Shown: positions 970-53,003, counted from the stretch's first letter. The stretch: 64,000 nt of DNA from a bacterium (GCA_035527835.1 DATKZS010000196.1:1058-65057), one strand, 5' to 3'. A program made the numbers and translations. Notes: generated by a model from the sequence alone, not told the origin.

Positions 970-998
970 AGACGGTTTCAGGACCCTGATAAGAATTT

Positions 999-1070
999 TA
1001 ACAAGGATATTCAGGATGTTAAGGATAAAAAAAAGATGAAATAATCCTGGAAATCCTGAACATCCCTGTT
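999..1070. repeat. AGGAT-nonamer palindrome, copy 1 (upstream of the permease gene)
   Basis: AACAAGGATATTCAGGATGTTAAGGAT-A8-...ATCCTGGAAATCCTGAACATCCCTGTT, with flank AATTTCTTC. Confidence 0.75.
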
Positions 1071-1093
1071 AATAATTTCTTCAATTTATGTAA

Positions 1094-2035
1094 ATGGAAA
1101 ACGAGGAACATACATCTCGCGCACGCCTCCCCGCGAGTCCGGGACGGATGGTGGCGAGGAGGCTGGGCCGCAACTGGTGGGCCATGGCCGGCCTGATTAT
1201 TATCATCATCCTGTTGGGCCTTGCCGTGTTCGCGCCCTGGATCGCGCCCTACGGCTACGAAAAAATTGACTACCAGGCCAAGCTGGCCGGCCCCTCCTGG
1301 GCCCATTGGCTGGGCTGCGACTTCCTGGGCCGCGACCTCATGTCCCGCATGATTTACGGCGCGCGCGTCTCGCTGGCGGTGGCCGTGGTCTCGACGCTCA
1401 TCAGCCTGGGGCTGGGCACGGCCTACGGCTCGATCTCCGGCTACGCCGGCGGCCGCCTCGACAACGCCATGATGCGGGTGGTGGACGTGATCTATTCCTT
1501 CCCCGACCTCCTCCTCATCATCCTGGTCAACGCCAGCATCAACCGCGAGTGGCTCGACGGCCTGCTCGCCCGCCCGGGCCTCGGCCTGATCGCCCTCTTC
1601 GTCAACGCCGACAACCTGGCGCTGCTCATCGCCTTGTCGCTGGTGAGCTGGGTGTACGTGGCGCGGCTGATCCGGGGCGAGGTGCTCCGGCTCCGGGAGG
1701 AAACCTATATCGAGGCCGCAAGAGCGCTGGGCGTCGGACACACCGGGATCATCGTCCGCCACATCCTGCCCAACACCTGGGGACCGCTCATCGTCACCCT
1801 CACCTTCCGCATCCCGGCCGTGATCCTGGCCGAGAGCACCCTGTCCTTCATCGGGCTCGGCATCCAGCCGCCCAAGTCGTCGTGGGGCACACTCGCCGCC
1901 GACGGATGGACCTCAATGCAGTTCTACCCCCGACTCATCCTCGCCCCCAGCATCGCCATCTTCATCACCATGATCGCCTTCAACTTCCTGGGCGACGGAC
2001 TGCGCGACGCCCTCGCCCCCGAGCGCAAGGTTTGA
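1094..2035 (+). CDS. ABC transporter permease, DppC/OppC (peptide/nickel) family
   Basis: 313 aa. N-terminal TM after a short cytoplasmic leader. Conserved permease core with an EAA-like loop (EAARALGVG). ATG at 1094 follows an A/T-rich upstream palindrome. Confidence 0.8.
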   Translation: MENEEHTSRARLPASPGRMVARRLGRNWWAMAGLIIIIILLGLAVFAPWIAPYGYEKIDYQAKLAGPSWAHWLGCDFLGRDLMSRMIYGARVSLAVAVVSTLISLGLGTAYGSISGYAGGRLDNAMMRVVDVIYSFPDLLLIILVNASINREWLDGLLARPGLGLIALFVNADNLALLIALSLVSWVYVARLIRGEVLRLREETYIEAARALGVGHTGIIVRHILPNTWGPLIVTLTFRIPAVILAESTLSFIGLGIQPPKSSWGTLAADGWTSMQFYPRLILAPSIAIFITMIAFNFLGDGLRDALAPERKV

Positions 2036-2056
2036 CCCCGAGACAATGCTCTCCTG

Positions 2057-2390
2057 AATAAATGGACCGGAGAACCGCCAAGGCGCCAAGAACGCCAAGA
2101 GTTACGATTTTATTACAAGCCTAAGCCCGGCTTCGCGCCGCCGCCAAGCCCACTTCGCCGAAGTAGCTTCGGCTACGAAGGCTGAACCTGCCCGCCGTAT
2201 GACTTTGGCAGGCGGGAGCGCTATGTCGCGCCGGAGGCCGGGCAAAAGATTTTTTCTCGGCGCTCCAGTCGGCCGGTTCGCCAAGCAGGTCGGGGCCAAA
2301 GTTAAAAAGCTTTTTTAAGTCCCGGCGCAAAGAAACACCAAATTCTGCTGGGCGATCCTTGGCGGTCTTGGCGCCTTGGCGTTTTTCTTA
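2057..2390 (+). mobile_element. MITE-like element with terminal inverted repeats, copy 1 (upstream of the AraC-family gene)
   Basis: Left end GGACCGGAGAACCGCCAAGGCGCCAAGAACGCCAAG. Right end CCTTGGCGGTCTTGGCGCCTTGGCG (reverse complement). No ORF inside. Confidence 0.6.
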
Positions 2391-2685
2391 GTGTCTATTT
2401 CGGACAATAATGCCTCAAGATTAGAAATTTTAATCCGCGAAAAAAAATTGTATTTTCTTGTTGACTTTGCCCCCTATACAAGGCTAGTATATGGAAAGGG
2501 AAAAGGGAAAGGCCGCGGCCCATGGATGGCGAGGGTCTGGCGCCCGGAAGACGCGCCGGGCTCCCTGGCCATAAAATATCAACTCCGGGCGCCTATAACT
2601 GTCAGCCGCGGCCTTGCAAGAGAAGTGCAGAACGCCCCGCAGATCCAGGCCCGCCGGGCCGGCAAGTCGAGAGGGAGAAAGAACA

Positions 2686-3338
2686 TGGCCAACGTCATCA
2701 TTTATTTTCATGACCCGACGGAGGGGGCGGCGCTCCGCCGGCCGGTGGGAGACGGGGTCAATTTCACCATGGCCCGGGGCTGGGACGACTTGAGCGGAAG
2801 GCTCTCCGAGGGCCGGCCCTGCGACCTCATCATCCTGGAGGGAGCGCCCACCGGGCTCAAGCCCGATCTGGCCCGCCGTATCAAGAAGATCAAGGACATC
2901 CCGGTCTTATTCTTCGAGGAAAAAAAGCCCGAGGCGGGTCCCTCCGCCGGCGCCGAGTGCCCGCCCCAGAGCGAGGTCTGGAAGGAGGCCGCCGCCCTCG
3001 CCTGTTCCGCCGACCCCATGGAAAAGGCCCGCCAGTTCATGGACGACAACTTCCGCGAGCAGCTCACCCTGGACCAGATCGCCGCCGTCGCCGGAATCTC
3101 CGCCAGCTACTTCTGCCGCCGCTTCAAGGGCAGGCTCGGGGAGTCGCCCATCACCTATCTCCGCAACCTCCGCATCGCCCGCGCCTCCTACCTGCTCGAG
3201 CACACCAGCCTCCAGCTCGCCGAGATCACCCAGCAGAGCGGGTTCTTCTCCGTCTCCTACTTCTGCCGCGAGTTCAAAAAGGCCATCGGCATCTCCCCCA
3301 TCCAGCACCGGAGGGAGAGCGGGAGAAAGAAGGTTTAG
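2686..3338 (+). CDS. AraC-family transcriptional regulator with degenerate N-terminal receiver-like domain
   Basis: C-terminal tandem HTH typical of AraC (LTLDQIAAVAGISASYFCRRFK ... QQSGFFSVSYFCREFKK). ATG at 2686 is preceded by GAGGGAGAAAG. The track ORF starts further upstream at an alternative start. Confidence 0.8.
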
Positions 3339-3510
3339 AGGTTCGAGGACTTGTCCACGGCGATGGCTGATAAATTGAAACGGCAACGGGGTTTAGAAAT
3401 TACGGCGCGCAAAAACTTCGGCAATGCAATCCGTCAACCCTGAACATCCTTAAATTTAATCTCTTGGCCCCGATGAGCCTCGGGTCTTAAACCTCAAACC
3501 AGTGCTGTCC

Positions 3511-3735
3511 AAAATAAACGGACCGGAGAACCGCCAAGACGCCAAGGATTATTTTTAAACACGATTTTAAGAGGGCTGGGGTGCGAATATTTCTTGCTTG
3601 GCGCTCCCGTCGGCCGGTTCGCCAAGCCGGTTGGGGCCAACGCTGCGGAGCTGTTCTTTGCCGGGCCGCCAAGAAACATCATGATTTACTTGGCGATTCC
3701 TGGCGCTCTTGGCGTCTTGGCGGTTTTCTTACGGC
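3511..3735 (+). mobile_element. MITE-like element, copy 2 (downstream of the AraC-family gene; shorter)
   Basis: Left end GGACCGGAGAACCGCCAAGACGCCAAG. Right end CTTGGCGCTCTTGGCGTCTTGGCGG. Shares an internal segment GGCGCTCCMGTCGGCCGGTTCGCCAAGC with copy 1. Confidence 0.6.
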
Positions 3736-3787
3736 CTATTTTGGACAAGAGTGACCTCAAACCCCAAACCTCAAACCTCACTCATCC

Positions 3788-4603
3788 TCACCGGCGCCGC
3801 GCGCCAGGCTTGCGCCGCGGCCGGGGCGCCGCGGCCGGGCCGGTGTCCTCGCCCAGGCCCGAGACCACATAGGTCCCGGACCGGCCGTCGCGGTAGAGCA
3901 TGATCAGACCCTGGTTCTCCGCGTCCTCCAACAGGCCGTTGAACATGCGGTAGCCGTAGTTGCCCTCGTCAAAGCTCGGGTCCTTGCGCTTCATCGTGTC
4001 CTTCACCATCGAGGCGTAGATCACCGGCTTGTTCTCACGCATCAAGGCCGTCACCGAATCCAAGAGCAGCCCGAAGACCTCCTTCTTGCCCTCCGGCAGC
4101 TTGCCAGAGCCGGCGCCCTGGTCCTTCACCACCGTCTTCAGGTCCTCGTAGTAAATGAACTCGTCGCAGTTGTCGCGCAAAAGCTCGGAGGTCGAGCCGC
4201 GCATCCCGAGACCGATCACGTATTTCCCGTTCTCCTTGAGCTTGCTCATCAGCGGCGAGAAGTCCGAGTCGCCGGACACGATGACAAAGGTGTCAATGTG
4301 CGCCTTGGCATAGGCCAGGTCAATGGCGTCCACCACCAGCCGGATGTCCGCCGAGTTCTTGCCCGTGATGTCGCGCTTGGGGATCTCGATCAGTTCGATC
4401 GCGGCCTCGTGCAGCTTCTGCTTGTAATCCGAGTACCGCACCCAGTCCGCGTAAGCCCGTTTCACGATGATCTTGCCCTTCTCAACCAGCCGCGCCAGAA
4501 CCCGCGTGATGTCGAACCGCCCGCCGCCTTGCTTGAACCCCAGCGCCAGGTTCTCGAAATCTATGAACACCGCCAGCCTTCGCTCTTGTTCTACTATTTG
4601 CAT
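3788..4603 (-). CDS. NYN-domain (LabA-like) protein with C-terminal OST-HTH/LOTUS domain
   Basis: 271 aa. N-terminal NYN/PIN-like motifs (VFIDFENL, IVSGDSDF). C-terminal LOTUS-like segment (GYRMFNGLLEDAENQGLI). Confidence 0.75.
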   Translation of the reverse strand: MQIVEQERRLAVFIDFENLALGFKQGGGRFDITRVLARLVEKGKIIVKRAYADWVRYSDYKQKLHEAAIELIEIPKRDITGKNSADIRLVVDAIDLAYAKAHIDTFVIVSGDSDFSPLMSKLKENGKYVIGLGMRGSTSELLRDNCDEFIYYEDLKTVVKDQGAGSGKLPEGKKEVFGLLLDSVTALMRENKPVIYASMVKDTMKRKDPSFDEGNYGYRMFNGLLEDAENQGLIMLYRDGRSGTYVVSGLGEDTGPAAAPRPRRKPGARRR

Positions 4604-4635
4604 GAATTAGGCTCCTTATTCTCCTGATTACCATA

Positions 4636-4738
4636 ACCGCTTATGCGGGTTTTTGGTTTGTAGTTTGTGGTTTGCGGTTAATGCCCGACAAGCCGGACTT
4701 GAATCGGAAACCACAAACCAAAAACCACAAACTACAAA
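4636..4738. repeat. long hairpin built from octamer repeats (GGTTTGNG)n/(CNCAAACC)n; likely terminator of the HIT gene
   Basis: GGTTTTTGGTTTGTAGTTTGTGGTTTGCGG ... CCACAAACCAAAAACCACAAACTACAAAC, a roughly 30-bp near-perfect inverted repeat. Confidence 0.75.
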
Positions 4739-5083: not shown

Positions 5084-5260
5084 CGTTGGTTCCCCCCTTT
5101 TCGGGCCTCGATTCACCGTTTATTCTGGGGCCAAGGCGCTCTATTGTCAAATCCGAAGAAATGCGGTATTAATGGACTATATGATGTCGGCGCGGTATAA
5201 TCCGGCCGGACCCGGATGGCCCGGCCCATCATCCAACAGCGATTGAGAAAGGAACCCTGA

Positions 5261-5806: not shown

Positions 5807-5809
5807 ATA

Positions 5810-8246: not shown

Positions 8247-8456
8247 TGCCCCAACACCCGCAGATGCGGCCCAGGGGCTGCGGGCGCCCTTGCAGGTCTT
8301 CACCCCTACCAATTATTGCATACGCGGATCAGGGGGAGCGGGTGCCCTCACCCGCGCTCACCCGCGTCTCAAAATTTTTATCTTGACCTGGAACCCAACC
8401 GCCACTCCGTTGTCTATTAACTATCCCCGAAAGGAAGCCAAACCCTTTCATCAGCA

Positions 8457-8497
8457 CAACCGCCCCGGGTAACCCGCCTGGGGCGGTTGTGTTTTTA
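8457..8497 (+). terminator. rho-independent terminator after the GT-C gene (first of two tandem similar modules)
   Basis: CAACCGCCCCGGG...CCTGGGGCGGTTG stem followed by TGTTTTT. A second near-copy at 8588-8625 lacks a clean T-run. Confidence 0.6.
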
Positions 8498-8675
8498 TGA
8501 ATCTCATGCATTTTTCTGAAACCTTTGTTCAGAAAATGAATCTAAATAAGTGAATCCCCGAAAAGAAGCCAAACCTTTTCATCATGCAACCGCCCCCGGG
8601 AAGTTCCCAGGGGCGGTTGCATTTATAAGCATTTCAATAAGTTATAGCGACGATGGACCATTCAAGCAACCAAGA

Positions 8676-11035: not shown

Positions 11036-11527
11036 CGCCGTGTCCACTGCCGTCAAATCCAGGCCACGGAGCCCGTTTCCCCAAAAATTTTTACCCTGTT
11101 TCGTCACGGTGTCCAACAAAATCCGCGGCTTGCCCGCCAGGGCCCCATTTTCTGTGGCCCAAGGGCTGGGACGCGGAGGCACTTTCGCGGCCCAATTCCC
11201 AGGCCCCTGTGGCCTGCGGTCCGGGCCGCAAAAACGCCTCCGTGTCCTAACCATCAGGCCACCCGCGTCCTATAATCCAGGCCACGAAATGACGCACCGA
11301 AACCGGCCCTTAAATTTACTTTTTTGACCCAACCATTCATTTTTCGTAGAGCCATTCTCACCTCGGAAAAATAGTAGCAAGTAGCCAGTAGCCGGTAGCC
11401 AGGGCTCAAACCCCAAACCTCAAACCCCAAACCTCCCTCATGCCCCCCTACTATTCGCAAACTGGTCGCACCGAAAAGGAAAAAAAGTAATGGTCCAAGG
11501 AAAGGGAGTAGCCAGCAGCCAGGGAGA

Positions 11528-11625
11528 AGATAAAAAAGGCTTGAGGTTTGAGGTGTGAGGTTTGAGATTGGAGGCTTAAGATCGGGATGTTAACCACAAA
11601 CCCCAAACCCCAAACCTCAAACCTT
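11528..11625. repeat. octamer-repeat hairpin
   Basis: GGCTTGAGGTTTGAGGTGTGAGGTTTGAG ... AACCACAAACCCCAAACCCCAAACCTCAAACC. Confidence 0.7.
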
Positions 11626-11713
11626 TCTTCCCTCCTTCGTGCCCTTGGTGTCTTCGTGGTTCAATTCTCTTTCCTCAAACCTCAAACCCCAAACCTCAAA
11701 CCTCATTTTCCCC

Positions 11714-11741: not shown

Positions 11742-11934
11742 GGACCGAGAATCGCGGGAAGGAGAAGGAAAGGCCGGATGGTGAGCGGAAGAAAATATGA
11801 ACCACAAAGGCACAAAGAACACAAAGAAAAAAACATTCTTCCCCCTTCGTGCCCTTTGTGCCTTGGTGGTTAAATTCTTTCTCTTCCCTGGCTACCGGCT
11901 ACTTGCTACTGGCTACTTTTTCCCCACTTTTTGC

Positions 11935-11962: not shown

Positions 11963-12279
11963 GGCAGAGAGATTACGGGAGGGGATGGACAGGAAAGGCA
12001 GGATGGGGAATGGGACCGGAAAGCGGCGGGCGCGGGGAAGAATGATGAGGCTAATGTTAAATGTTAAGACCTGACCCCAATCACTTCGTGGTTCAATTCT
12101 CTTTCCTCAAACCTCAAACCTCAAACCTTTCTTCCCCCCTTCGTGCCCTTGGTGTCTTCGTGGTTCAATTCTCTTTCAACAAACCCCCAACCTTTCCTCC
12201 CGGGATATTGATGTCCCCGATCCCGTCCAACCCTTGATACCACAGGGTATCATGGTTGCGGATCATGGGACCATCGTCT

Positions 12280-12951
12280 TTATCCGCCCATGGCCTTGAC
12301 CGCTTCCACGGACCATTGCAGAGCGCCATCAAAGGCCTCGCGGGTCAGGTCCGCGCGCGAGAGGCTAAGGACCAGGGAATGGCTGGGAAGATAAAACATT
12401 ACGGAGATGATGGCCTTCGAGAGCAAGGGCAGGCCCTCACGCACCACCGGCAAGGACAAGCTTGAGTAGTCCTCTGAAACAGGATGGACCGCAAAGATAT
12501 AATTCCCAGCCAGCTCCGTACCGGCCAGTCCGGGAATCTGGGCCAGGTCCTCCTCCGGATCAATCTCATCGTCCTCCCGGCGCCGCTCCAGCTCGATGAT
12601 TTCTTCCCCGTCCGGGTCCTTCACCTCTCCCACGGTCAGATACCAACGCTTGGCCTTTTTGGGCAGGTATTCCAGGACGACCTTGCTCATCCCCGCGCGG
12701 CCTTCCATCCGCCTCTCCTGCGTCCCCTCCACCGGTTTTAAATCATACGCCGCCACGAGCTCGGCCCACAATGGATCGCCGCTGAACAGAACCTGAATCT
12801 TCTCCCGGATACCCATTTGGTTTCGGCCCTCCTTGATTTTTCCTCGCCAGGAATGCAACAACATCCCCTGACCAATGGCGCGGACAATCTTGTCCGCTGA
12901 CAACCTATTGTACATCGCGACCAAAATAACGCCGCCTCGGTGAAACCGCAA
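12280..12951 (-). CDS. hypothetical protein (acidic, no recognisable domain)
   Basis: 223-aa ORF, the only minus-strand ORF in the island. Start is uncertain; internal Met candidates exist. Confidence 0.4.
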   Translation of the reverse strand: MRFHRGGVILVAMYNRLSADKIVRAIGQGMLLHSWRGKIKEGRNQMGIREKIQVLFSGDPLWAELVAAYDLKPVEGTQERRMEGRAGMSKVVLEYLPKKAKRWYLTVGEVKDPDGEEIIELERRREDDEIDPEEDLAQIPGLAGTELAGNYIFAVHPVSEDYSSLSLPVVREGLPLLSKAIISVMFYLPSHSLVLSLSRADLTREAFDGALQWSVEAVKAMGG

Positions 12952-13015
12952 GCTGGAACGCAGTATCCAAACCTCCCCCTCCCCAAGCTGCCGGCTGCTT
13001 TTTTTCTTTTTCCGC

Positions 13016-13043
13016 TTGACATGGAATCAGGACGGGATAGACT
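13016..13043 (+). promoter_or_regulatory. promoter module copy P3 (TTGACA-N16-TAGACT) driving the DUF4258/YgiT pair
   Basis: Same module as at 11714, 11935, 13805 and 14047. 15 nt upstream of ATG 13058. Confidence 0.6.
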
Positions 13044-13057
13044 GGCAGGGGATTACG

Positions 13058-13360
13058 ATGACGATCAAGGAGATTCAAGATAAGATCAAGGCCGGCAGCC
13101 ACCGCTATTCGGACCATGCGGTGAAAAGAATGATTAAAAGGTCAATTGAGGACCATGAGGTTGAGCAGGCTGTTTTAACGGGAGAGATCATAGAAGAGTA
13201 CCCCCGCGATAAGTATTCTCCCAGCTGCCTGGTTTTCGGAACCACGGACAAGGGGAGGCCCTTGCACGTCCAGGTTTCATTTCCGCCCCAAGTTGTTATA
13301 ATAACCGTATATGAGCCGGATCAAGATGAATGGACGGATTATCGGGTCAGGAGGAGGTGA
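13058..13360 (+). CDS. DUF4258-family putative toxin
   Basis: Roughly 100-aa protein with a (S)DHAVKRM motif typical of DUF4258. ATG at 13058. The track start at 13016 is a TTG lying inside the promoter -35. Confidence 0.7.
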   Translation: MTIKEIQDKIKAGSHRYSDHAVKRMIKRSIEDHEVEQAVLTGEIIEEYPRDKYSPSCLVFGTTDKGRPLHVQVSFPPQVVIITVYEPDQDEWTDYRVRRR

Positions 13361-13366
13361 AGCAAC

Positions 13367-13609
13367 ATGAAATGCGTATTCTGCGGCGGCCAAACCAAAA
13401 GCCAAAAAGTGACCTTTGTTGATGACGAGCAAGGCAAATACCTGGCGGTCGAGAACGTACCCGCCCAGGTCTGCACCAGGTGCGGAGAAAAAACCTATGA
13501 CCCCGAAACCACCAGGCTCCTCCTCGACTACGCCCGCAACCGCCGCCACCCCGCCAAAACCTTTAACATGCCCGTCTTCGACTTCGAAAAACCCGGCGAC
13601 AGGCCATGA
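13367..13609 (+). CDS. YgiT-type zinc-finger (MqsA-like) putative antitoxin
   Basis: MKCVFCGG...CTRCGE zinc ribbon of the TIGR03831/YgiT type. Sits 6 nt downstream of the DUF4258 gene. Confidence 0.7.
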   Translation: MKCVFCGGQTKSQKVTFVDDEQGKYLAVENVPAQVCTRCGEKTYDPETTRLLLDYARNRRHPAKTFNMPVFDFEKPGDRP

Positions 13610-13635
13610 GCGGGCCTTAAGGAGTAGCCGGCAGC

Positions 13636-13800
13636 CAGTAGCCAGGGAAAAGCTTAAGACTTGAGGCTTGGGGCTTGAGGCTTGAACCACAAACCCCAAA
13701 CCTCAAACCACAGACCTTCCTTTCTTCCCTTCGTGCCTTCGTGGTTCAATTCCCCCTCTTCAACCACAAACCCCAAACCTCAAACCACAAACCTCATTTT
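13636..13800. repeat. octamer-repeat tracts (CTTGAGG/AAACCACAAACC) in the island
   Basis: Visible period-8 tandem arrays. Short ORFs in the track translate them as KPQTSNL-type peptides. Confidence 0.7.
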
Positions 13801-13804
13801 ATGC

Positions 13805-13832
13805 TTGACATCGAACCAGGAAGGGATATACT
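13805..13832 (+). promoter_or_regulatory. promoter module copy P4 (TTGACA-N16-TATACT)
   Basis: Short form of the module, nearly identical to P1 over about 100 nt. Confidence 0.45.
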
Positions 13833-14046
13833 GGACCGAGAATCGCGGGAAGGGATGGACGGGAAAGACGGGATGGGGAGCGGAAGAAAATATGAACCAC
13901 CATGCCACCAAGATCACGAAGAACAATAAATCATCCTTCTTCCCTTCGTTCCCTTGGACTTCGACGAGCTCAGTCGAGTCGTGCCTTCGTGGTTCAATTC
14001 TCTTTCTTCCAACCCCAAACCTCAAACCACAAACCTCATTTTTCCC

Positions 14047-14074
14047 TTGACATTGAACCCGGAAGGGATATACT
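14047..14074 (+). promoter_or_regulatory. promoter module copy P5 (TTGACA-N16-TATACT) upstream of the AT-rich orphan gene
   Basis: Near-consensus hexamers, followed by a purine-rich leader and then gene 14295. Confidence 0.55.
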
Positions 14075-14294
14075 GGCGGAGAAATTACGGGAGGGAATGG
14101 ACGGGAAAGGCGGGATGGGGAACGGGACCGGAAAGGGGAGCGCGGGGAGAAGAATGAGAAGGATAATGTTAAATGTTAAGACCTGATCCCAATCCCATGC
14201 CAATCCCCATGCCAATCCCCACCACCAATCCCCACCAACAGCCCCTTGAGACCAGAAGCCGCTTTTTCCAAATATAATTAGAGAGGGTAGGAAA

Positions 14295-15497
14295 ATGATG
14301 GCAAAGACTTACTCACCTACAGACATTTTTTTTGATCCATTAGTTGATAGAGATTATTATTACACCATCCTTCCTCTTCTTCCGTTACTATATGATCATA
14401 TTTATATTTATTATCCGAGTGACAATTGGGCCAAGGTTACAAATTACCTTTCTCCGACGACACGTATTAGCTACATTCAAAATCTGAGACATTGGATTAG
14501 CAAAGGAGTAATTATACCAGTCTTAAAAGGTGAATATCCATTGAAAGATGACATAAGAAAAAAGAGATCTGAAATGGATGGGCCTTCCGAAGAGTTTAAA
14601 AATGTTCTGAAAAAATATAGAAAGGACTATCAAGAATCTTTAATAACTCTTGATGTACAATCAACGCTAAGAGGGTATGATGAAGCTAGAAAACTAATTC
14701 AGGAAATTGGGAACGAAGAACAAATCATTAATATGATTAAGCTAGACCTTAATGAAGCTATTCCCGACCTTTTTTATTATTATGCCGGCGGACCAAGAGC
14801 AACCAGTTCTAAATTGCTCCTAGAGATAATCAGTGCATATAAAAATGACGATTGGATTAGAAAAGATAACGAGCTTGGAGAATATTTGCTTCCAAGCACT
14901 GCTGCATACCAATATCATGCCATTACAGATCTTGGTGAAAAAAAGAGAATAGAAGATATATATCATAATACTATTATTGTAAGAGCAGTTGATATTCTTG
15001 ATGAGAAACGACTCAGACGAGATATTTGTGAATGGCCTGAAAAAGATAATATTGAAACATGGCGTGAGTTGGGTCTTCACAGAATATTGAGAGTGTTCTT
15101 ACACTCACAGGCAATTTCAAATAATCCAGATGTACAAGCAAATGAACTAGAATACACAAGCATAGAGCTTGGCAATAGATTAACTAAACTTCGATCACAA
15201 CTTCCAGGTGAATTGGCATCTCTTTTAGTTGACAAAGGATTGTTATCGCAAATTATTATTTGCCTTACTGCGTCACTAGGCATTGTAATTGGTGATGCAA
15301 CATCAACAATTATTGGAGGCTTGGTAACTCTCTGTGTGGGCAATATAGGAAGCAAAGCTATTTTATTCAGCCTAAAGAGGATAAAATGGGATAAATTCAT
15401 TGATGCTATTGAAGATGTTTTAGGCTCCAAGTCAAATAGAACGTTGGAGAGCATTGCACTTGCCTTTGGAGATGTTATAGTCTTAGGAAGAGAGTAG
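14295..15497 (+). CDS. AT-rich orphan protein of unknown family; soluble 300-aa N-terminal region plus two C-terminal TM helices
   Basis: 400-aa uninterrupted ORF whose DNA is strikingly AT-rich relative to everything around it. Shine-Dalgarno GAGGG is 9 nt upstream. C-terminal hydrophobic segments LLSQIIICLTASLGIVIG and IIGGLVTLCVGNIG. Confidence 0.7.
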   Translation: MMAKTYSPTDIFFDPLVDRDYYYTILPLLPLLYDHIYIYYPSDNWAKVTNYLSPTTRISYIQNLRHWISKGVIIPVLKGEYPLKDDIRKKRSEMDGPSEEFKNVLKKYRKDYQESLITLDVQSTLRGYDEARKLIQEIGNEEQIINMIKLDLNEAIPDLFYYYAGGPRATSSKLLLEIISAYKNDDWIRKDNELGEYLLPSTAAYQYHAITDLGEKKRIEDIYHNTIIVRAVDILDEKRLRRDICEWPEKDNIETWRELGLHRILRVFLHSQAISNNPDVQANELEYTSIELGNRLTKLRSQLPGELASLLVDKGLLSQIIICLTASLGIVIGDATSTIIGGLVTLCVGNIGSKAILFSLKRIKWDKFIDAIEDVLGSKSNRTLESIALAFGDVIVLGRE

Positions 15498-15618
15498 AAA
15501 GAAATTATTTATGTTCATCCGGTTAAAGAGTACTTTTGCTGATGAAGATGAAGCAGTCTCATCTTAAAATATTCATTATCACGATATCCATAAGCCTGTC
15601 TTTTCAGTGGGGATTGGG

Positions 15619-15712
15619 GTCATCTATAAAAGTCCCAGTCAAGACAAATCTCTCTTTTCCTGAAGACAAATTTTCTTCATCTGGGAAGGGCTCCCCCCTC
15701 GCCATCGCCGCT
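15619..15712 (+). repeat. X module of the composite 3' block (copy 1)
   Basis: TCATCTATAAAAGTCCCAGTCAAGACAAATCT...CTGGGAAGGGCTCCCCCCTCGCCATCGCCGCTG. Second copy at 17991-18085. Confidence 0.75.
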
Positions 15713-15820
15713 GTGCGGGATCGGGATCGGGGGTCAGGTCTCGACATTAGACATTTGTTTACGTATTCAGGGTATGTTTAATCAACCCTTACCGGGTTGG
15801 GCGGTGGTGATGGGATTGTG

Positions 15821-15880
15821 TCCCAGGGTAGGCCGAAGACGGCCAACCCTGGGCTATTTTATGTTTGCCCTTTCAGGGAG
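15821..15880 (+). repeat. REP-like element, copy 1 (partial: central and right hairpins only)
   Basis: TCCCAGGGTAGGCCGAAGACGGCCAACCCTGGGCTATTTTATGTTTGCCCTTTCAGGG. Confidence 0.75.
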
Positions 15881-15980
15881 TAACAATAATGCCGCGGCCA
15901 GGGGATGCGAATTGTGTGGGTGGGGGTCAGACCCTTGTTTGACTGTTTAACGGGGCGGAATTTTTCAGCCGTCTTTATCT

Positions 15981-16080
15981 CGCCCTTTCAGGGCTGAAAA
16001 GGATATTTGGGGCGGCGATATCCCAGGGTAGGCCGGGGACGGCCAACCCTGGGCTATTTTATGTTTGCCCTTTAAGGGCG
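15981..16080 (+). repeat. REP-like triple-hairpin element, copy 2 (full)
   Basis: CGCCCTTTCAGGGC ... CCCAGGGTAGGCC-loop-GGCCAACCCTGGG ... GCCCTTTMAGGGCG. Lies 3' of gene 14295-15497. Confidence 0.8.
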
Positions 16081-16139
16081 TAACAATAATGCCGCGGCCA
16101 GGGGATGCGAATCGGGAGAGGTTGTGGCGGGCATCAAAG

Positions 16140-16345
16140 AAAGGTTTGTGGTTTGAGGTTTGTGGTTTGTGGTTGAAGAAAGGAGATTGAACCACGAAGG
16201 CACGAAGGTAGGAAAAGAGGTTTGTGGTTTGAGGTTTGTGGTTTGTGGTTTAATAGCCAAACCTCAGACCTCAGACCTCAAGCCTCACACCTCAAACCTC
16301 AATCCTCGCGCCCGGACCTCAAACCCCAAACCTCACACCTCAAAC
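16140..16345. repeat. octamer-repeat tract pair (GGTTTGWGG arms then CCTCAAACC arms)
   Basis: Tandem 8-mers on one strand followed by their complement. Part of composite block I. Confidence 0.75.
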
Positions 16346-16440
16346 CTCATCTCCCTTGATTCATGATGCTTGATCGGGCATAGTTGGGCCATGTGGAGAA
16401 CAGGTTTGTGGTTTGGGGTTTGCGGTTTGTGGTTGAATAA

Positions 16441-19356: not shown

Positions 19357-20817
19357 TTACTCGATGCTTGCGGCCATGACTCGATAGACGAGCGCGATGC
19401 GTCCGTCGCGGTTGAAGGCTCGGAGGAAGAGGTAGGTTAGCCTGAATTTGCCTTGTGGGGTCGTGACCACGGTGTCGCGGTTTTTTGCTGACTTCAGGAA
19501 TCCGAAGCGCTGCCAGTCCACCTGCGAGATGTTGAGCCACACGATCAAGCCCACGTCATGCGTGAGCACCTGCTCCAACACAAAACGGTCCGGGTCATCG
19601 CCTGGCTTGATTTCTCCCCAAGTGTAGGCCTCCCGGCCGGTGGTGTACTTGAAGATCAGCGGGTTCTGCCCCAGCACCGCTTCTTCGCCGGGAACTTGGC
19701 GCAGCGACTTCGCGGCCTCCAGGATCGGGTCCCCCGGCAGCGCGGCCAGTCCGTAAAGATAAAGGCCGCTGACCGCCAGCAGCGGGACCAGCACGCCCGC
19801 CGCCGCGGCCGTCTTCATCCGCGGCTCCCGCTCCGGCCGGCGCGACGCGTCCCATTTCACGAAGCGGTCCAGGCCCAGCGCCGCCGGCGCGAGCACCGCC
19901 GGCATCAGCGCCAGCAGGAACCGGTCCTGGTACCACCACCAGATGACGTGCAGGCCCGTGTAGAGCGCGGCGAACCCGGCGAGGTAAATGAGCCACTTAC
20001 GTTGGAGCCGGGCCAGGCCCAGGGCCGCGGCGGCCAGGGCCACCGGCCCGAAGTCCTTGACCAGGCCCAGGCCGATCTCGGCCAGGTGGAGATGTAACAC
20101 CACCAACTCCAGCCAATAGGAGGTCCTGCTCAGCGTTCCGTAGGTCAAAAGGTTCCGGATCAGCCACGGCGACGCCGCCAGCGCCGTTCCCGCGAGCCCC
20201 TTGATCACGGCGCGTCCGCTGCCGAGGTTGGCGATCACGAACACCAGGACCAGCAGGTAACCCTCGTACCTGGTGATCATGGCAAGCCCCAGCATGAGCC
20301 CCGCCGTAAAAAAGCGCTCCGTGCTCAGCAGCCAGTAAGACAGCAACAGCAGCAGCGTGAAGATGGGCATCACGTTCACGTCCCGGTACTGGTCCCAGCC
20401 CACCGCCATCAGCGCCAGCGCCGCCGCCGCCGTCAGCGCCGCCCAGCGCGAGGCCTGGAGGCGCCGCGCCAGCAGGAACAGGAGCGGAGGCAACATGGCC
20501 CCGCAGCCGACGCTGACCGCCTGCCCCCATTTCTCCACCCCGATCGCGCCGCCCGCCGCCAGGTTGAATAACGCCATCAGGAACGGATAAAACGGCAGGA
20601 ACTTGGCGTACGGCTCTCCCATAACCACGTACCCGCCGCGAAACAGGTTCTCGGCAAGCTCGATGTAAGTAAAACCGTCCGGCGTGACCACGCGGAAAAA
20701 CCAGGCGAGCGCGCCATAGCCCAGCAACCCCGCGCCCAGCAGGATCATCGCGATGCCGCGGTCAGAAGCGGCGTCCCGGCTGTCCGTGCAAATGTTCAGC
20801 AGCTCGTTCCCCCTCAA
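19357..20817 (-). CDS. GT39/GT83-like (PMT/ArnT family) membrane glycosyltransferase
   Basis: DGFTYIELAENL DE-motif in the first periplasmic loop. At least 10 TM helices. The start may be the internal MILLGAGLL. Confidence 0.7.
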   Translation of the reverse strand: MRGNELLNICTDSRDAASDRGIAMILLGAGLLGYGALAWFFRVVTPDGFTYIELAENLFRGGYVVMGEPYAKFLPFYPFLMALFNLAAGGAIGVEKWGQAVSVGCGAMLPPLLFLLARRLQASRWAALTAAAALALMAVGWDQYRDVNVMPIFTLLLLLSYWLLSTERFFTAGLMLGLAMITRYEGYLLVLVFVIANLGSGRAVIKGLAGTALAASPWLIRNLLTYGTLSRTSYWLELVVLHLHLAEIGLGLVKDFGPVALAAAALGLARLQRKWLIYLAGFAALYTGLHVIWWWYQDRFLLALMPAVLAPAALGLDRFVKWDASRRPEREPRMKTAAAAGVLVPLLAVSGLYLYGLAALPGDPILEAAKSLRQVPGEEAVLGQNPLIFKYTTGREAYTWGEIKPGDDPDRFVLEQVLTHDVGLIVWLNISQVDWQRFGFLKSAKNRDTVVTTPQGKFRLTYLFLRAFNRDGRIALVYRVMAASIE

Positions 20818-21467: not shown

Positions 21468-21493
21468 TCTTCACCTCTCTATTAAAAGATTTT

Positions 21494-21580
21494 CAGACAG
21501 GATGAACAGGATCAACAGGATATTGGGAAGAGGCCATTTGCTTTTTTTCTCATCATCCTGTTAATCCTGTTAATCCTGTC
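21494..21580. repeat. AGGAT-nonamer palindrome, copy 2 (between trkH and trkA, upstream of the trkA start)
   Basis: GACAGGATGAACAGGATCAACAGGAT ... ATCCTGTTAATCCTGTTAATCCTGTC. Confidence 0.75.
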
Positions 21581-21617
21581 TAAAAAATTCTTCATGACTT
21601 CGGTCCGCCGCCCCACC

Positions 21618-27849: not shown

Positions 27850-28093
27850 TGGTGTTACACCTCGATCACCCGGCCACCGGCCGGAGGCCGCCTCCCACAT
27901 TCCCCGCGGCCAGATGTAACATATCAGGGCGGGGCGGGGATAATCAAGAAGGGAGCAGGCAAGGCGGGTTGCGCAGTGCAGCCCCGGGAGGGGCGGGCGA
28001 AAGTAGCCCAGCAATTCATTGCTGGGTGGGCCGGCAGCACCGATGCCCCGAGTCCCGGAGGGACGACCGAGTCTTGCTCAACTCATGATCGTC

Positions 28094-33641: not shown

Positions 33642-33669
33642 GATAACCACCTTGGAAGAAGAAATAGCT

Positions 33670-33739
33670 AACAAGGATGTTAAGGATCTTCAGGATAAAG
33701 ACGAGAACAATTATCCTTAATATCCTTAACATCCTTGTT
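33670..33739. repeat. AGGAT-nonamer palindrome, copy 3 (immediately upstream of the OYE gene start)
   Basis: AACAAGGATGTTAAGGATCTTCAGGAT ... ATCCTTAATATCCTTAACATCCTTGTT. Confidence 0.75.
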
Positions 33740-33778
33740 ATTAAATTCTTGTCGGAGTTATGAAACCGGAGCTTCTTT

Positions 33779-36069: not shown

Positions 36070-36170
36070 TAATATGGGCGCGGATCGCGTAGAGCGTAGA
36101 GCGCGGGGCGAATGGCGTAAATCAAATCAGCGCCAAAGTAACGGTCTTTAACGCCCTGCGCCCTTCGCTC
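36070..36170. repeat. heptamer-arm hairpin (GCGTAGA)n in the divergent promoter region between the K+ channel and GNAT genes
   Basis: GCGTAGAGCGTAGAGCG ... CGCTCTACGCTCTACGCTTTACGC. Confidence 0.65.
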
Positions 36171-36248
36171 TACGCTCTACGCTTTACGCTCTGCTCTTGA
36201 CCCGCCGCCCCCGCGTCTATATCCTGAATTCAGGCTTGGGGTGAACGG

Positions 36249-45441: not shown

Positions 45442-45524
45442 GTCCCTGCCGGGACTTAAGGGTTTCTTATGTCCACATTCCCAGGAATAAATTCCCGGGC
45501 TATTCTCGGCTGTCCCTCCGGGAC
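45442..45524. repeat. GTCCC-CGGGAC palindromic element, copy 3 (between batB and batC)
   Basis: GTCCCTGCCGGGAC ... CCCAGGAATAAATTCCCGGG ... GTCCCTCCGGGAC. Confidence 0.7.
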
Positions 45525-45569
45525 AAAAAATGTCCGAACCCCGGGTTAATTTATTTCCGTTGCATACCC

Positions 45570-49545: not shown

Positions 49546-50474
49546 CTCGCCCTCCTCGCCCTGGCCTTGAAGAATTTGATCAGGGAGCGGTCGTAGGGCT
49601 CACCGGCCGAGACCGGGATGTTGTCGAGGTCCCTGGAGAGGAAGACGTGGTCGCGCCTGGCGTCGGCCTCGCGGGTGATGGCGGCGAAGAGCTCGCGGGT
49701 ATGCTGGTCATAGGTGTCCACCACGATGCGCTCTCCGGTCTCGGCGTCTTCGAGCTCGATGAGTCCGACTGGTTCGAGCTGTTTTTCGCGGGGGTCGGAC
49801 AGGGGCACGGCGATGAGGTCGTGGCGCTTGCCGGCGATGCTGATGGCCTTGTCGTATCCGGTGGCCATGAAGTCGGAGATGAGGAAGACGACGGCCTTTC
49901 TTTTGTGGACTCGGGAGAGGTATTCGAGGGCGGCGGCGATGTCGGTGTGCTTCCCTTGGGGCTTGAAGAAGAGGACCTCGCGGATGATGCGGAGCACGTG
50001 GGTGCGTCCCTTCTTGGGCGGGATCGAGCGCTCGACCTGGTCGGTGAAGATGATGAGCCCGACGCGGTCGTTGTTGCGGACGGCGGAAAAGGCGAGCAGG
50101 GCGCAGAGCTCGGCGGCGAGCTCGGCCTTCTGCTTGTCGCGGGTCCCGAAGTAGAGCGACGAGCTGGCGTCCACCATCAGGATCACGGTGAGCTCGCGCT
50201 CCTCGTGGAAGACCTTGACGTAGGGGTGGCCGGCGCGGGCGGTGACGTTCCAGTCAATGATGCGCACGTCGTCGCCGGGCGTGTACTCCCGGACCTCGGA
50301 AAACTCCATGCCGCGGCCCTTGAACACGCTGTGGTACTGGCCCGCCATGACCTCGTTGACCACGCGCCGCGTGGTGATCTCGATGCGCCGGACCTTTTTC
50401 AGGAGCTCGCGCACCGACTCGGCGCCGTTCTTATCAGCGGCGGCGCGAGGCGGGTTATGGGTTGAAGTGGTCAT
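49542..50474 (-). CDS. DUF58 (vWA-like) protein
   Basis: EFSEVREYTPGDDVRIIDWNVTAR signature of DUF58. Follows moxR. Confidence 0.85.
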   Translation of the reverse strand: MTTSTHNPPRAAADKNGAESVRELLKKVRRIEITTRRVVNEVMAGQYHSVFKGRGMEFSEVREYTPGDDVRIIDWNVTARAGHPYVKVFHEERELTVILMVDASSSLYFGTRDKQKAELAAELCALLAFSAVRNNDRVGLIIFTDQVERSIPPKKGRTHVLRIIREVLFFKPQGKHTDIAAALEYLSRVHKRKAVVFLISDFMATGYDKAISIAGKRHDLIAVPLSDPREKQLEPVGLIELEDAETGERIVVDTYDQHTRELFAAITREADARRDHVFLSRDLDNIPVSAGEPYDRSLIKFFKARARRAR

Positions 50475-50489
50475 ATCAAGCTCATTGTT

Positions 50490-50570
50490 TCACGCCAAGG
50501 CGCAAAGGCGCGAAGGGAAAATAATTTGAATAAAACTTTGCGTTCTTTGCGCCTTTGCGTGAAAAATTCT
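50490..50570. repeat. hairpin related to the MITE ends (GCGCAAAGGCGCAAAG ... CTTTGCGCCTTTGCG)
   Basis: Between moxR and DUF58. A near-identical hairpin sits at 58025-58135. Confidence 0.6.
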
Positions 50571-51560
50571 TCACGGAATCTCCACGTGGTCGAAGATCTC
50601 GCGCACGATGGTCTCGCTGGTCACTTCCTCGGCCTCGGCCTCGTAGGTCACGATGACGCGGTGGCGGAGCACGTCGGGTCCGATGGCCTTCACGTCCTCC
50701 GGGGTCACGTAGCCCCGGTGGCGGATGAAGGCGTGGGCCTTGGCGGCCAGGTTCAAGTAGATGCTGGCGCGCGGGCTGGCCCCGTAGGCGATGAGCCCCT
50801 GCAGGTCCTTCATGCCGTAGCTTGACGGCTCGCGGGTCGCGAACACCACGTCCACGATGTACTGCTTGATCTTGGGGTCCATGTAGATCATGCGCACGGC
50901 GTCGCGGGCCGCGGCGACGTCGGCCGGGCCGATGACCGCCTCCGGCTGCGGCGTTTCCTGGCCGGTCATGCGCTCCATGATGTCGAGCTCCTCCGCCTTG
51001 TCCGGGTAGCCCACCACCACCTTGAGCATGAAGCGGTCCACCTGCGCCTCCGGCAGCGGGTACGTGCCCTCCTGCTCGATCGGGTTCTGGGTGGCCATCA
51101 CCAGAAACGGCGGCGTCAGCGGATACGTGGTGTCGCCGATGGTCACCTGCCGCTCCTGCATGGCTTCGAGCAGCGCGCTCTGCACCTTGGCCGGCGCGCG
51201 GTTCACTTCGTCGGCCAGGATCAGGTTGGCGAACACCGGGCCTTTTTTCGGGGTGAAGGTGGAGGTGCGCGGGTCGTAAATCTGGGTCCCGATGATGTCG
51301 GCGGGCAAGAGGTCCGGGGTGAACTGGATGCGCTGGAACTTGGTGCGGACGATCCGGGCCAGCGTGCGGATGGTCATGGTCTTGGCCAGGCCGGGCACGC
51401 CCTCCAACAGCACGTGCCCGTCGGCCAGGAGCGCGATCAGGAGCCGCTCCAGCATGTTGCGCTGGCCCACGATCACCTTGCCCGCCTCCTTGAGCACCGC
51501 GTCCACGAACTTGCTCTGCTCGGAAACCTTGGCGTGAATCGCCTGCATGTCGAGTTCCAT
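50571..51560 (-). CDS. moxR: MoxR-family AAA+ ATPase
   Basis: Walker A LEGVPGLAKT, Walker B ILADEVNRA. 329 aa. Confidence 0.93.
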   Translation of the reverse strand: MELDMQAIHAKVSEQSKFVDAVLKEAGKVIVGQRNMLERLLIALLADGHVLLEGVPGLAKTMTIRTLARIVRTKFQRIQFTPDLLPADIIGTQIYDPRTSTFTPKKGPVFANLILADEVNRAPAKVQSALLEAMQERQVTIGDTTYPLTPPFLVMATQNPIEQEGTYPLPEAQVDRFMLKVVVGYPDKAEELDIMERMTGQETPQPEAVIGPADVAAARDAVRMIYMDPKIKQYIVDVVFATREPSSYGMKDLQGLIAYGASPRASIYLNLAAKAHAFIRHRGYVTPEDVKAIGPDVLRHRVIVTYEAEAEEVTSETIVREIFDHVEIP

Positions 51561-51651
51561 TGGCCCGCCCCCTTTGAGAAAGAGTATTTAGTATCTAGCA
51601 TTTAGTATTTAGCGCATTAACGTTCAAGAATGACCGCATCGGTGTTCATCC

Positions 51652-52719
51652 TTATGATCCGTGTTCATCTGTGTTTGATTCCCCCACGCCTGTGCCCATG
51701 CTCTCGCCCTCCGCGACGAGTCCCTTGAGCGTCTCCATGGCCTGGTCCAGCTCGGCGCCGCGCGGCTCACGTCCCGCGAACTTGACCTCGTCGGCCAGCT
51801 TCTCCAGCGCGATGATTTTCGAGCGCCACTCCCCGCCGAGCTTGCCGGCCACCGCCGCCGCCAAAGCATCACGGCTCTGCGAGCGCGCCTTGATCTCAAG
51901 CACGTCCTCGCAATAGTGCTTCATCTCGGCCGTGAGCGCCTTCAAGAACGCGCCCACGTCTCCGGCCATGCGCAGCCGGTCGGCCTCCTTGAGCCGCTCG
52001 CGCGCGATCTCGTGGCGCGTGCGCTCCGGCTCCACCGATTTCTCTTCGATCCTCCGCGCCTTGATCCAGAGCCAGCCCAGGCCCGCAACGCAGGCCAGGG
52101 CCGCGAGGCCGAGCCCGATCTTGACCGCCGGATTGGCCGTGAGCTTGGCCGCGGTGAGCCGCTCCGGGGTCACGGTCACGGGTATTACTTGGGTCTTGAG
52201 CTCGGCCTGGTCCCGGGAGCCGATGTAAAAATACTTGATGGCCACCGGCTTGATCTCTGAGGCCCCGGCCTTGTCGGCGTGGAACTCATAGGTGTACTCG
52301 CGCGAGACCTTGACTTTATCGCCCGAGAGCGTGGTCTCGGAATGGAAGCTGTTGGCGAAGAGGGTGAGGCCGTCGGCGGACGGCGGCTCGGGGAACTCGA
52401 AGTCCAGCGGCAGGGCCGGCTGCGAGGCCGGCTCCTCCCAGGTGAGCGTCACGATCAGGTCCACCGTCTGGTCCTGGGCCACGCTGGGCTGGTCCACCCT
52501 GGCGGAGATGGTGACCGATGGGAGCGGCCGGTACGGTGCGGCGGGGGCCGCGGTGTCTCCGGCCGCCGGGGCCGTTGCCGGGCCGGGCGCGGCCGGAGGC
52601 GCGGGCCGGTTCTGCTGGAGCGGCGGGGGCGGCAGCTCGGGAAAATCCGCGGCCGGCGCGAGAGAGGCCGCGAGCAGCGCGCACGCCGCGGTCAGAACCT
52701 TGAGCCTTAGGCCTGCCAT
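51652..52719 (-). CDS. secreted/membrane protein, paralog of the 47601-48725 gene (BatD-N-like periplasmic domain plus DUF4381-like tail)
   Basis: Signal peptide, Pro/Ala-rich linker, beta-rich domain, one TM (IGLGLAALACVAGLGWLWI), and a tail with VKFAGREP motif. Confidence 0.5.
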   Translation of the reverse strand: MAGLRLKVLTAACALLAASLAPAADFPELPPPPLQQNRPAPPAAPGPATAPAAGDTAAPAAPYRPLPSVTISARVDQPSVAQDQTVDLIVTLTWEEPASQPALPLDFEFPEPPSADGLTLFANSFHSETTLSGDKVKVSREYTYEFHADKAGASEIKPVAIKYFYIGSRDQAELKTQVIPVTVTPERLTAAKLTANPAVKIGLGLAALACVAGLGWLWIKARRIEEKSVEPERTRHEIARERLKEADRLRMAGDVGAFLKALTAEMKHYCEDVLEIKARSQSRDALAAAVAGKLGGEWRSKIIALEKLADEVKFAGREPRGAELDQAMETLKGLVAEGESMGTGVGESNTDEHGS

Positions 52720-52861
52720 GTTTCAACCACCGATGGGAATTTTATCAGGGCGTTCATGGTTTCCTTATTACATCTTGGCCCGCTTACCAGCCCTCCCTGA
52801 ACGAAGAGATGGCGCGGGCCATCACCGGCCTTTTAAGGCTGGTAAAAATTTCTATTAGAAC

Positions 52862-53003
52862 CGGTTTCATAACCAGGACAACCACCTAAGATGAAAAGAT
52901 TATTAACAAGGATATTCAGGATTACCAGGATGGCTTCTGGTTTTTTTGATCCTGAACATCCTGAATATCCTTGTTTAAAAATTCTTGGGGAGGTTATGAA
53001 ACC
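52862..53003. repeat. AGGAT-nonamer palindrome, copy 4 (extended, about 140 bp; upstream of the Bat operon)
   Basis: CCGGTTTCATAACC...AACAAGGATATTCAGGATTACCAGGAT...ATCCTGAACATCCTGAATATCCTTGTT...GGTTATGAAACCG. Confidence 0.75.

Follow-up and report, generated by a model that had tools for sequence, protein, structure and literature searches.

A probable mobile foldback repeat of phased ACAGGAT heptads in the intergenic DNA of bacteria and archaea

Palindromic mobile repeats in intergenic DNA are a known kind of genetic element. The small ones are usually lineage-specific, and the parent, an insertion sequence (IS) or a RAYT gene, is known or can be guessed. In this study, four AT-rich palindromes made of AGGAT units in a stretch of bacterial DNA of 64,000 nucleotides (GCA_035527835.1, DATKZS010000196.1:1058-65057; the whole stretch is called the window) are compared with such elements. 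The palindromes belong to a real repeat of constrained architecture, which has been inserted, is intergenic without bias for a type of spacer, and occurs in both Bacteria and Archaea. On balance, they are probably copies of a non-autonomous foldback mobile repeat, similar to MITEs (miniature transposable elements with inverted repeats) or REPINs, whose heptads are recognised by a trans-acting protein. Within this known kind, the cross-domain, grammar-like conservation of the element is unusual.

Repetitive extragenic palindromes (REP) and the hairpin-forming REP doublets (REPINs) are extragenic, non-coding, and multi-copy, show no target-site duplication, and are tolerated in operons (PMC3116915, PMC3733652), all of which is also true of the AGGAT element. 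As in a REPIN, two inverted arms separated by a short spacer form one long hairpin. REPINs are mobilised in trans by RAYT (REP-associated tyrosine) transposases of the Y1 HUH type, and mobilisation in trans may be a further shared trait. However, REP arms are short imperfect palindromes with a GTAG/CGTC head, whereas the arms described here are tandem ACAGGATNN arrays at 9-nt phase without self-complementarity. REPINs are also lineage-specific and co-evolve with one RAYT gene, whereas the AGGAT motif recurs across phyla and domains, and the neighbours of the copies examined included neither a RAYT nor a cognate Y1 transposase gene between such repeats.

Bacterial MITEs (e.g. Correia/NEMIS, ERIC, RUP, and Nezha) are small AT-rich palindromic intergenic insertions with terminal inverted repeats as well. 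They can donate promoters or ribosome-binding sites, form hairpins in mRNA, and are often nested in one another. The AGGAT element agrees with them in size (total length of 51-153 bp, median 75), in its inverted arms, and in having no open reading frame (ORF). However, classical MITEs have a target-site duplication and a parent IS, neither of which was found here. Each is confined to a genus or family, and its inverted repeats are unique sequences, whereas this element is made of phased heptad arrays.

Three other systems share single traits with it. The small dispersed repeats (SDR) of Nostoc, which Elhai et al. are said to have described in Genome Res in 2008, are reportedly very small hairpin-forming mobile repeats of 21-27 nt, nested and embedded in heptamer arrays or mini-transposons; they are said to be confined to a cyanobacterial subgroup and, unlike the AGGAT element, to have other sequences and no phased heptads. 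The Foldback (FB) transposons of Drosophila are eukaryotic and kilobase-sized, with long inverted termini of short tandem units and a small or absent centre; since their units are different, the likeness is one of architecture only. Direct repeats of the heptamer TAACTGA are found in Beggiatoaceae, cyanobacteria, and Bacteroidetes (MacGregor 2015, PMC4679880). Together with the cyanobacterial short tandemly repeated repetitive (STRR) sequences, they resemble the element in being short tandem intergenic units, patchy across distant phyla in a way that suggests horizontal spread, and proposed to bind protein (PMC4679880). TAACTGA repeats are contiguous 7-nt repeats, mostly forward and ending just 5' of start codons, with one inverted set reported (PMC4679880), whereas the element has a period of 9, obligate inverted arms of about three units, and no bias towards start codons.

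The original prediction described four palindromes in the window, each with three 9-mers ending in AGGAT followed by their complements. Reading of the regions confirmed them at all four places: every arm consists of three NNNNAGGAT nonamers that end in AGGAT (ATCCT in the opposite arm). With at most one mismatch allowed, AGGATN4AGGATN4AGGAT matches the window at exactly eight arms (1004-1026/1044-1066, 21499-21521/21555-21577, 33674-33696/33713-33735, and 52909-52931/52949-52971), against 0.00 matches expected from 100 dinucleotide-preserving shuffles. All eight arms have the predicted outer flank like AAGAATTT / AAATTCTT, and the copies are indeed AT islands, with a GC content of 0.31-0.38 in a window of about 0.62. 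Long hairpins are predicted for all four (z-scores of -4.3 to -8.1). The copies, with one associated motif, are:

973-1097, no strand assigned: copy 1, local subfamily; arms 1004-1026 and 1044-1066, loop 1027-1043; flanks AAGAATTTTAAC / GTTAATAATTTCTT; outer inverted repeat degenerate (CGGTTTCA at 973-980, TTATGTAAATGG at 1086-1097); neighbours are a Zn-alcohol dehydrogenase gene (stop 969) and an OppC-like permease gene (start 1094).
21477-21598, no strand assigned: copy 2, canonical cross-phylum type; arms 21481-21529 and 21547-21595; layout TTTTCAGAC(AGGATnnAC)2AGGAT, 33-nt loop, ATCCT(GTnnATCCT)2GTCTAAAAAATTCTTCAT; fills the spacer from the trkH stop (21618) to the trkA start (21467), minus strand; the Shine-Dalgarno sequence GAGAGGTGA is kept, outside the element.
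33643-33769, no strand assigned: copy 3, local subfamily; arms 33674-33696 and 33713-33735; right outer repeat GGAGTTATGAAACCGG at 33754-33769, left part truncated or overlapped by the start of the old yellow enzyme (OYE) gene; neighbours on the minus strand are a response-regulator receiver gene (stop 33779) and OYE (start 33641).
33647-33653, minus strand: AAGGTGG in the outer part of copy 3, 5 nt 5' of the called OYE ATG (33641-33639).
52861-53004, no strand assigned: copy 4, most complete member of the local subfamily; arms 52909-52931 and 52949-52971; outer inverted repeat CCGGTTTCATAACC (52861-52874) and GGTTATGAAACCG (52992-53004); in the spacer of a divergent pair, a BatD-like gene on the minus strand (start 52719) and an ABC permease gene on the plus strand (start 53244).

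Copy 2 is of the canonical type with the unit ACAGGATNN. The other three copies belong to a subfamily private to this genome, in which the units read (A/G)TT(C/A)AGGAT and a further inverted repeat, CGGTTTCATAAC...GTTATGAAACCG, lies outside the arms; this repeat is present in copies 3 and 4, degenerate in copy 1, and absent from all of 200 loci elsewhere. The palindromic GGAG(G)TTATGAAACCG reported for copies 3 and 4 is present (33754-33769 and 52987-53004, with its reverse complement at 52861-52874), and a degenerate version occurs in copy 1 (973-980 and 1086-1097). However, what had been taken to mimic a Shine-Dalgarno sequence with ATG is the terminal inverted repeat of this subfamily, and its ATGs open frames of only 7 and 17 codons. 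The central A-run did not prove to be a feature either, since loops are unconserved across the wider family and range from 4 to 40 nt. The AAGGTGG of copy 3 has a homologous counterpart, AGGTGG, in the left outer part of copy 4. Gene callers give an OYE product of 370 aa that starts at the ATG next to copy 3, and it is plausible from the sequence that the ribosome-binding site of OYE was donated by the element.

Copy 2 is an insertion, since the orthologous trkH-trkA spacers of eleven relatives (L121-L126, L128-L132; TrkA 45-76% identical to that of the window) are short and carry no element: the spacer is 150 nt in the window and 9-25 nt in the relatives. Presence and absence at orthologous sites, as is typical of MITEs, is thereby documented for one filled and eleven empty sites. 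No array of three or more units was found at the loci of 80 relatives. Judged by the closest empty sites, the segment that was inserted spans about 21477-21598, with the AAGAATTTT flanks inside it and the Shine-Dalgarno sequence outside. Therefore, the element is dispensable for trkA expression in these relatives. On metagenome contigs that encode the exact TrkA protein, the trkH-element-trkA arrangement is identical to that of the window. Insertion into an operon spacer is also indicated, in a second case, by a conserved adjacent gene pair, the spacer of which is 320 nt long with two AGGAT elements in a metagenome-assembled genome (MAG) of Desulfobacterales (L048:5334-5655), and 79 nt long without an element in a Pyrinomonadaceae MAG (L056:1786-1866). 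A filled and empty pair from Methanoperedens (L010 and L054) is, at ~70% identity, too divergent to fix the ends of the element.

To establish the distribution of the element, a database with one genome per species was scanned with a pattern of 25 specified bases, i.e. three AGGAT units on one arm and two ATCCT units on the other at 9-nt phase with a gap of 10-40 nt. By a rough estimate from the size of the collection and the specificity of the pattern, well below one match is expected by chance. Among the matches listed are more than 116 further stretches from at least 13 bacterial phyla plus archaea. The hosts include Acidobacteriota (Pyrinomonadaceae, Blastocatellia, and Chloracidobacterium), Planctomycetota (Gemmata algarum, Pirellulales, and Brocadiaceae), Verrucomicrobiota, Lentisphaerae, Chlamydiota, Chloroflexota, Desulfobacterota (Desulfamplus magnetovallimortis), Gamma- and Betaproteobacteria (Thiobaca trueperi, Thiosymbion, Thiotrichaceae, and Nitrosomonas), Gemmatimonadota, Armatimonadota, Bacteroidota (Spirosoma), Nitrospirota, Sumerlaeota, and Desantisbacteria. 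G. algarum, T. trueperi, D. magnetovallimortis, and Spirosoma soli are cultured. The archaeal hosts belong to Methanoperedens/Methanosarcinales, with at least eight assemblies among the matches listed. Their elements adjoin mtrH (E = 3e-135), ABCE1/RLI, and cdc48, and from these neighbours the archaeal contigs are genuine.

A BLAST search with the consensus element found it absent from 5,426 Escherichia coli genomes and 50,697 records of cultured phages. Matches occurred only on plasmids of Spirosoma oryzicola and Thiodictyon syntrophicum, at unannotated sites; the two copies on the PGAP-annotated T. syntrophicum plasmid are intergenic. No description of the element was found in the literature, which was also searched with the exact repeat strings. 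An Rfam scan of the whole window at gathering thresholds gave no family at any copy, and a permissive scan around copy 2 returned only sub-threshold noise resembling miRNA precursors. In Desulfamplus (L021, L026, L051, L103, and L104), the AGGAT palindrome is the core of an asymmetric repeat of ~170 bp, …TTATTGCATTTGTCTGAATC[core]GATTCAGACAGTGTTGACAAGGCTC…ATAGGTGTCG…, with a TTGACA motif in its right part.

The sequence of the element follows a strict grammar. In 242 arms, each AGGAT is preceded by A at 77-80% and C at 83-93%, and a flank TT(A/T)(G/A)AC (TTWRAC) is conserved; none of these was imposed by the search. Thus the unit is ACAGGAT plus two free bases (NN). The third unit is present as a rule, with three units on both arms in 67 of 123 elements. 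Among the viral contigs, the 9-nt phase was found in 14 stretches, against none at 10 nt and two at 8 nt, and the AGGAT arm came first in 14 cases, against none in which ATCCT arrays came first. The pentamer AGGTA did not make a clean control, because AGGTACCT is self-complementary and is found in coding repeats. The sole case of reversed polarity seen lies in a Chlamydiae MAG (L120:16-98), where ATCCT arrays precede AGGAT arrays at an irregular spacing of 8-9 nt. The outer NN positions are partly complementary (62%/45% Watson-Crick pairs against 31%/28% expected), and the inner ones pair at chance (42%/33% against 31%). In Methanoperedens, identical 2x2 mismatches are retained in all assemblies. 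These data on free bases, mismatches, phase, and polarity indicate that an oriented heptad at fixed phase is kept, rather than a perfect stem. With AC conserved, the phase specific, the polarity fixed, and the free bases and loop unconstrained, the phased heptads look like multimeric, oriented recognition sites for a protein, and this part of the original prediction gained support.

The same data bear on the idea that the element works at the RNA level like REP of E. coli, as a transcribed hairpin under selection for its stem that stabilises mRNA, marks it for processing, or modulates translation. It appears in favour of this idea that the predicted hairpins are very stable, that three of the four window copies lie within same-strand gene pairs, and that family members are nearer to the facing stop codon (median 43 nt) than to the facing start codon (median 74 nt). 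However, hairpin stability by itself is indifferent to polarity or phase, and a stem needs neither a fixed polarity nor identical heptads within an arm. Variable stem positions are not kept complementary, and the Methanoperedens mismatches are constant. On the sense strand of co-directional pairs, mismatches of G:U and A:C type are equally common (81 vs 72, p = 0.52), and therefore there is no sign of selection on the sense RNA. Divergent spacers are occupied as often as background predicts, and no Rfam family matches. Overall, selection for an RNA hairpin is an unlikely explanation.

The original prediction stressed that all four copies lie 0-170 bp upstream of a start codon and proposed a promoter component. 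The position is literally true; however, the same-strand gene that precedes each of copies 1-3 has its stop codon only 34-43 nt 5' of the copy, and copy 4 sits between divergent genes. In a survey of about 100 genomes, 103 of 112 elements were intergenic. The nine that seemed to be inside ORFs are artefacts: in two mid-ORF cases the real domains start 3' of the element, and the others are at the ends of miscalled ORFs. The co-directional, convergent, and divergent spacers of 98 family members number 57/20/21, as do the element-free spacers of the same loci in proportion (chi-square p = 0.87 by count and 0.78 by length), with no bias towards start codons. With 20 of the 98 in convergent spacers, about 20% have no start codon downstream.

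These results can be set against the view that the copies are host regulatory sites in cis, either arrays for a transcription factor or nucleoid protein or a curved UP-like module that acts on the downstream gene. The heptads are phased and oriented like protein-binding sites, every window copy precedes a start codon, and TTGACA occurs at the boundary of some copies (TTTGACAGGAT), as this view would have it. However, relatives without copy 2 have trkA 9-25 nt after trkH, the spacer distribution is that of the background, and the neighbour genes are unrelated across the archaeal and bacterial hosts. A promoter scan gave no consistent -35/-10 (sigma-70-like) signal across the four copies, and copy 4 does not include the promoter-like site of the permease gene (53150-53178). 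An UP element would be a fixed site 5' of -35/-10, with which the lack of a promoter signal, the 20% of convergent members, and the archaeal members do not agree; sigma-70 UP elements are not known to exist in archaea. The 9-bp period is out of phase with the helix of 10.5 bp, so that bends in each unit would probably not add up to planar curvature. Therefore, the promoter or UP reading is not supported, and a regulatory role of the broader kind is improbable. The copies do not behave as intrinsic terminators either: no call of the terminator scan corresponds to the element hairpin, none lies inside copies 1-3, and the only call within an element is a small stem of seven pairs in the loop of copy 4 (52924-52941). 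The stems are AT-rich with a T-run before and an A-run after, unlike a GC-rich stem with a U-tract.

A proposed history of the mobile foldback repeat can be described as follows. A small, non-coding dispersed repeat was inserted into intergenic DNA, with about three ACAGGAT heptads at 9-nt phase on each end, always pointing to the centre. The heptads would serve as oriented sites for a mobilising protein, a transposase or nuclease, that acts in trans. This protein may have spread horizontally through many bacterial phyla and into the archaeon Methanoperedens. With no more than 4-40 nt between the arms, a fold-back structure (hairpin or cruciform) is the probable reactive form, and not looped duplex DNA. 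The copies in the window would then be passengers, and any effects on neighbour genes incidental rather than those of dedicated promoter parts. Readthrough transcripts of trkH-trkA and of response regulator-OYE may gain a stable hairpin. The Methanoperedens copies in eight assemblies have a common loop (ACGATTT...) and NN pattern at unrelated loci, and their similarity ends sharply at TTTnGAC / GTCnAAA. Therefore, whole units have been copied, as expected of dispersed copies of a master, and the private outer repeat common to window copies 1, 3, and 4 points the same way.

Several results weigh against this proposal. No mobilising protein was found among the neighbours examined: an all-against-all BLASTP of 893 neighbouring ORFs revealed no recurrent linked family, the hits being limited to response regulators/ABC ATPases, HSP20, and FG-GAP proteins. 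Some 0.9 Mb of element-bearing loci contained no autonomous element with the arms at its ends; neither there nor in the window does a pair of arms enclose a gene, and no transposase recurs. The unpaired arms have degenerate partners, are half-elements, or, in the case of L120, make up a reversed pair. No target-site duplication was detected above chance, with abutting direct repeats of at least 2 bp in 18 cases, where shuffled flank pairs predict about 13. Such a result agrees poorly with classical MITEs of the DDE type, although the boundaries of the element are fuzzy. The empty sites prove one insertion only, that of copy 2, and no insertion polymorphism was seen among strains of the window organism, for the element is present on all four trkA contigs and all three response-regulator contigs, which are those with the exact proteins. 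AGGAT was imposed by the search pattern, and its conservation across phyla is therefore in part due to ascertainment. Finally, the survey of placement used crude greedy longest-ORF gene calls. The missing duplication resembles mobility of the HUH/REPIN type rather than that of the DDE/MITE type.

Integrons are known in bacteria and archaea, and the folded recombination sites of the attC type are comparable in size and are imperfect palindromes, with some copies of the element having ...AAC / GTT... boundaries. However, GAC/GTC is as frequent as AAC/GTT, contrary to RYYYAAC...GTTRRRY. The element occurs as single copies between housekeeping genes (trkH-trkA and others) and not in co-oriented cassette arrays, attC sites lack conserved internal tandem heptads, and no recombinase recurs nearby. 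An attC-like origin is thus very improbable. Three further candidates were rejected: CsrA sites, since the stem sequesters the GGA motifs and the family has archaeal members; DnaA boxes, which have ATCC alone in common with the units; and ends of IS630/mariner elements with TA duplication, as TA is found in a minority only.

The element is not alone in its design. A sister family has units of CRCNRAG+NN (CACGAAG, CACAAAG, CACAGAG, CGCAAAG, and CGCCAAG). Its arms start with AACC and have about three units, with the purine-rich arm first; the layout AACCACGAAGnnCACGAAGnnCACGAAG - loop - complement, with CACGAAG+NN, was found in 22 viral-contig stretches, against two of reversed polarity. It occurs in other phyla and viral contigs (L025, L099, L101, L107, and L225-L246), and it often encloses the ACAGGAT core as a nested palindrome (L025, L099, L101, and L107). 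The members of this family and the weaker AGGAT remnants in the window are:

3439-3465, minus strand: possible solo-arm remnant of the local subfamily, ACCCTGAACATCCTTAAATTTAATCTCTT (arm profile, nhmmer E = 0.22, weak).
3517-3540/3697-3728: sister-family palindrome.
8676-8700/8763-8786: sister-family palindrome.
11800-11871: sister-family palindrome.
58026-58132: sister-family palindrome of nonamers of the CGCAAAG type, with the next feature nested in its loop.
58064-58095, no strand assigned: degenerate AGGAT half-element ATCCGGTGCATCCTGTAAATTCCG (arm-profile match 58073-58091, nhmmer E = 2.5, weak).

The purine-rich arm is first in both families (14:0 and 22:2), there is no target-site duplication, and period-7 arrays of diverse kinds are frequent in loci with the element (71 per Mb, compared with 5.7 per Mb in control loci). 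These observations would agree with the repeats being a by-product of a repeat-generating process, in which slippage, or else a templated polymerase or reverse transcriptase, produces a local purine-rich tandem array and snap-back synthesis then makes the inverted arm. However, copies at unrelated loci have loops and NN patterns in common, arm length stays near three units and is not spread as slippage would give, and the free bases differ between the arms of one element, which is unexpected for fresh snap-back copies. Such an origin is therefore doubtful. Tentative, and less likely than not, is the possibility that the ACAGGAT and CACGAAG palindromes constitute an undescribed superfamily of phased-heptad foldback elements, which have in common seven conserved and two free bases, arms of about three units, and a purine-rich arm that comes first. 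It might be moved through Bacteria and Archaea without target-site duplication by a horizontally travelling enzyme, or its repeats might be written by a templated polymerase or reverse transcriptase. If this were true, and with a mobile enzyme, it would represent a new kind of hairpin-based transposition.

The grammar of the AGGAT element (heptad, 9-nt phase, about three units per arm, and polarity) is the same from Acidobacteria, Planctomycetes, and Chloroflexi to Methanoperedens, a pattern which would imply a conserved and unnamed recognising machine and the flow of its gene across domains. Since the element is present in cultured strains (G. algarum, Spirosoma, T. trueperi, and D. magnetovallimortis), a protein that binds ACAGGAT x3 can be sought directly. 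For the hosts, such elements may lengthen intergenic spacers, split operons with strong hairpins, and donate ribosome-binding sites, and in metagenome annotation they can cause spurious ORFs.

The window is rich in other repeats. Dense intergenic heptamer arrays or palindromes are present at 3485-3500, 3757-3782, 4649-4732, 11405-11708, and 16142-16420, with further arrays at 11380-11403, 11508-11522, and 11890-11915, and at 36080-36189. Their units are GGTTTGA/GGTTTGT with the complement CCTCAAA/CCCCAAA, GTAGCCA, and CGTAGAG, and they resemble cyanobacterial STRR and, in sequence, telomere repeats. GGTTTGA arrays lie on both sides of an island of low GC content (12000-16400; 0.41 vs 0.62), which is possibly foreign or mobile DNA. 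The ORFs of this repeat-rich island, including one for a 400-aa protein (14295-15497), have no match in Pfam or NCBIfam, and no transposase was found among them with these databases. Another local repeat family is represented by two direct copies of ~80 bp (8420-8500 and 8545-8625), which have a hairpin CAACCGCCCC...GGGGCGGTTG and common flanks (…GAAAGGAAGCCAAACCCTTTCATCA…).

Next to trkA, an ORF of 486 aa (19357-20817, minus strand) starts within the trkA stop in an ATGA-type overlap (20814-20817); it has no Pfam or NCBIfam match and is kept 3' of trkA on all contigs of the window organism. The Acido-Lenti-1 RNA of Rfam matches at 45480-45525 (plus strand) and 27980-28026 (minus strand) with 41.5 and 41.3 bits, against a gathering score of 37. 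As far as sequence goes, these matches hint at Acidobacteriota or Lentisphaerae as the source of the window, which comes from an uncultured lineage, and the Pyrinomonadaceae-like flanks of the element hint at Acidobacteriota.

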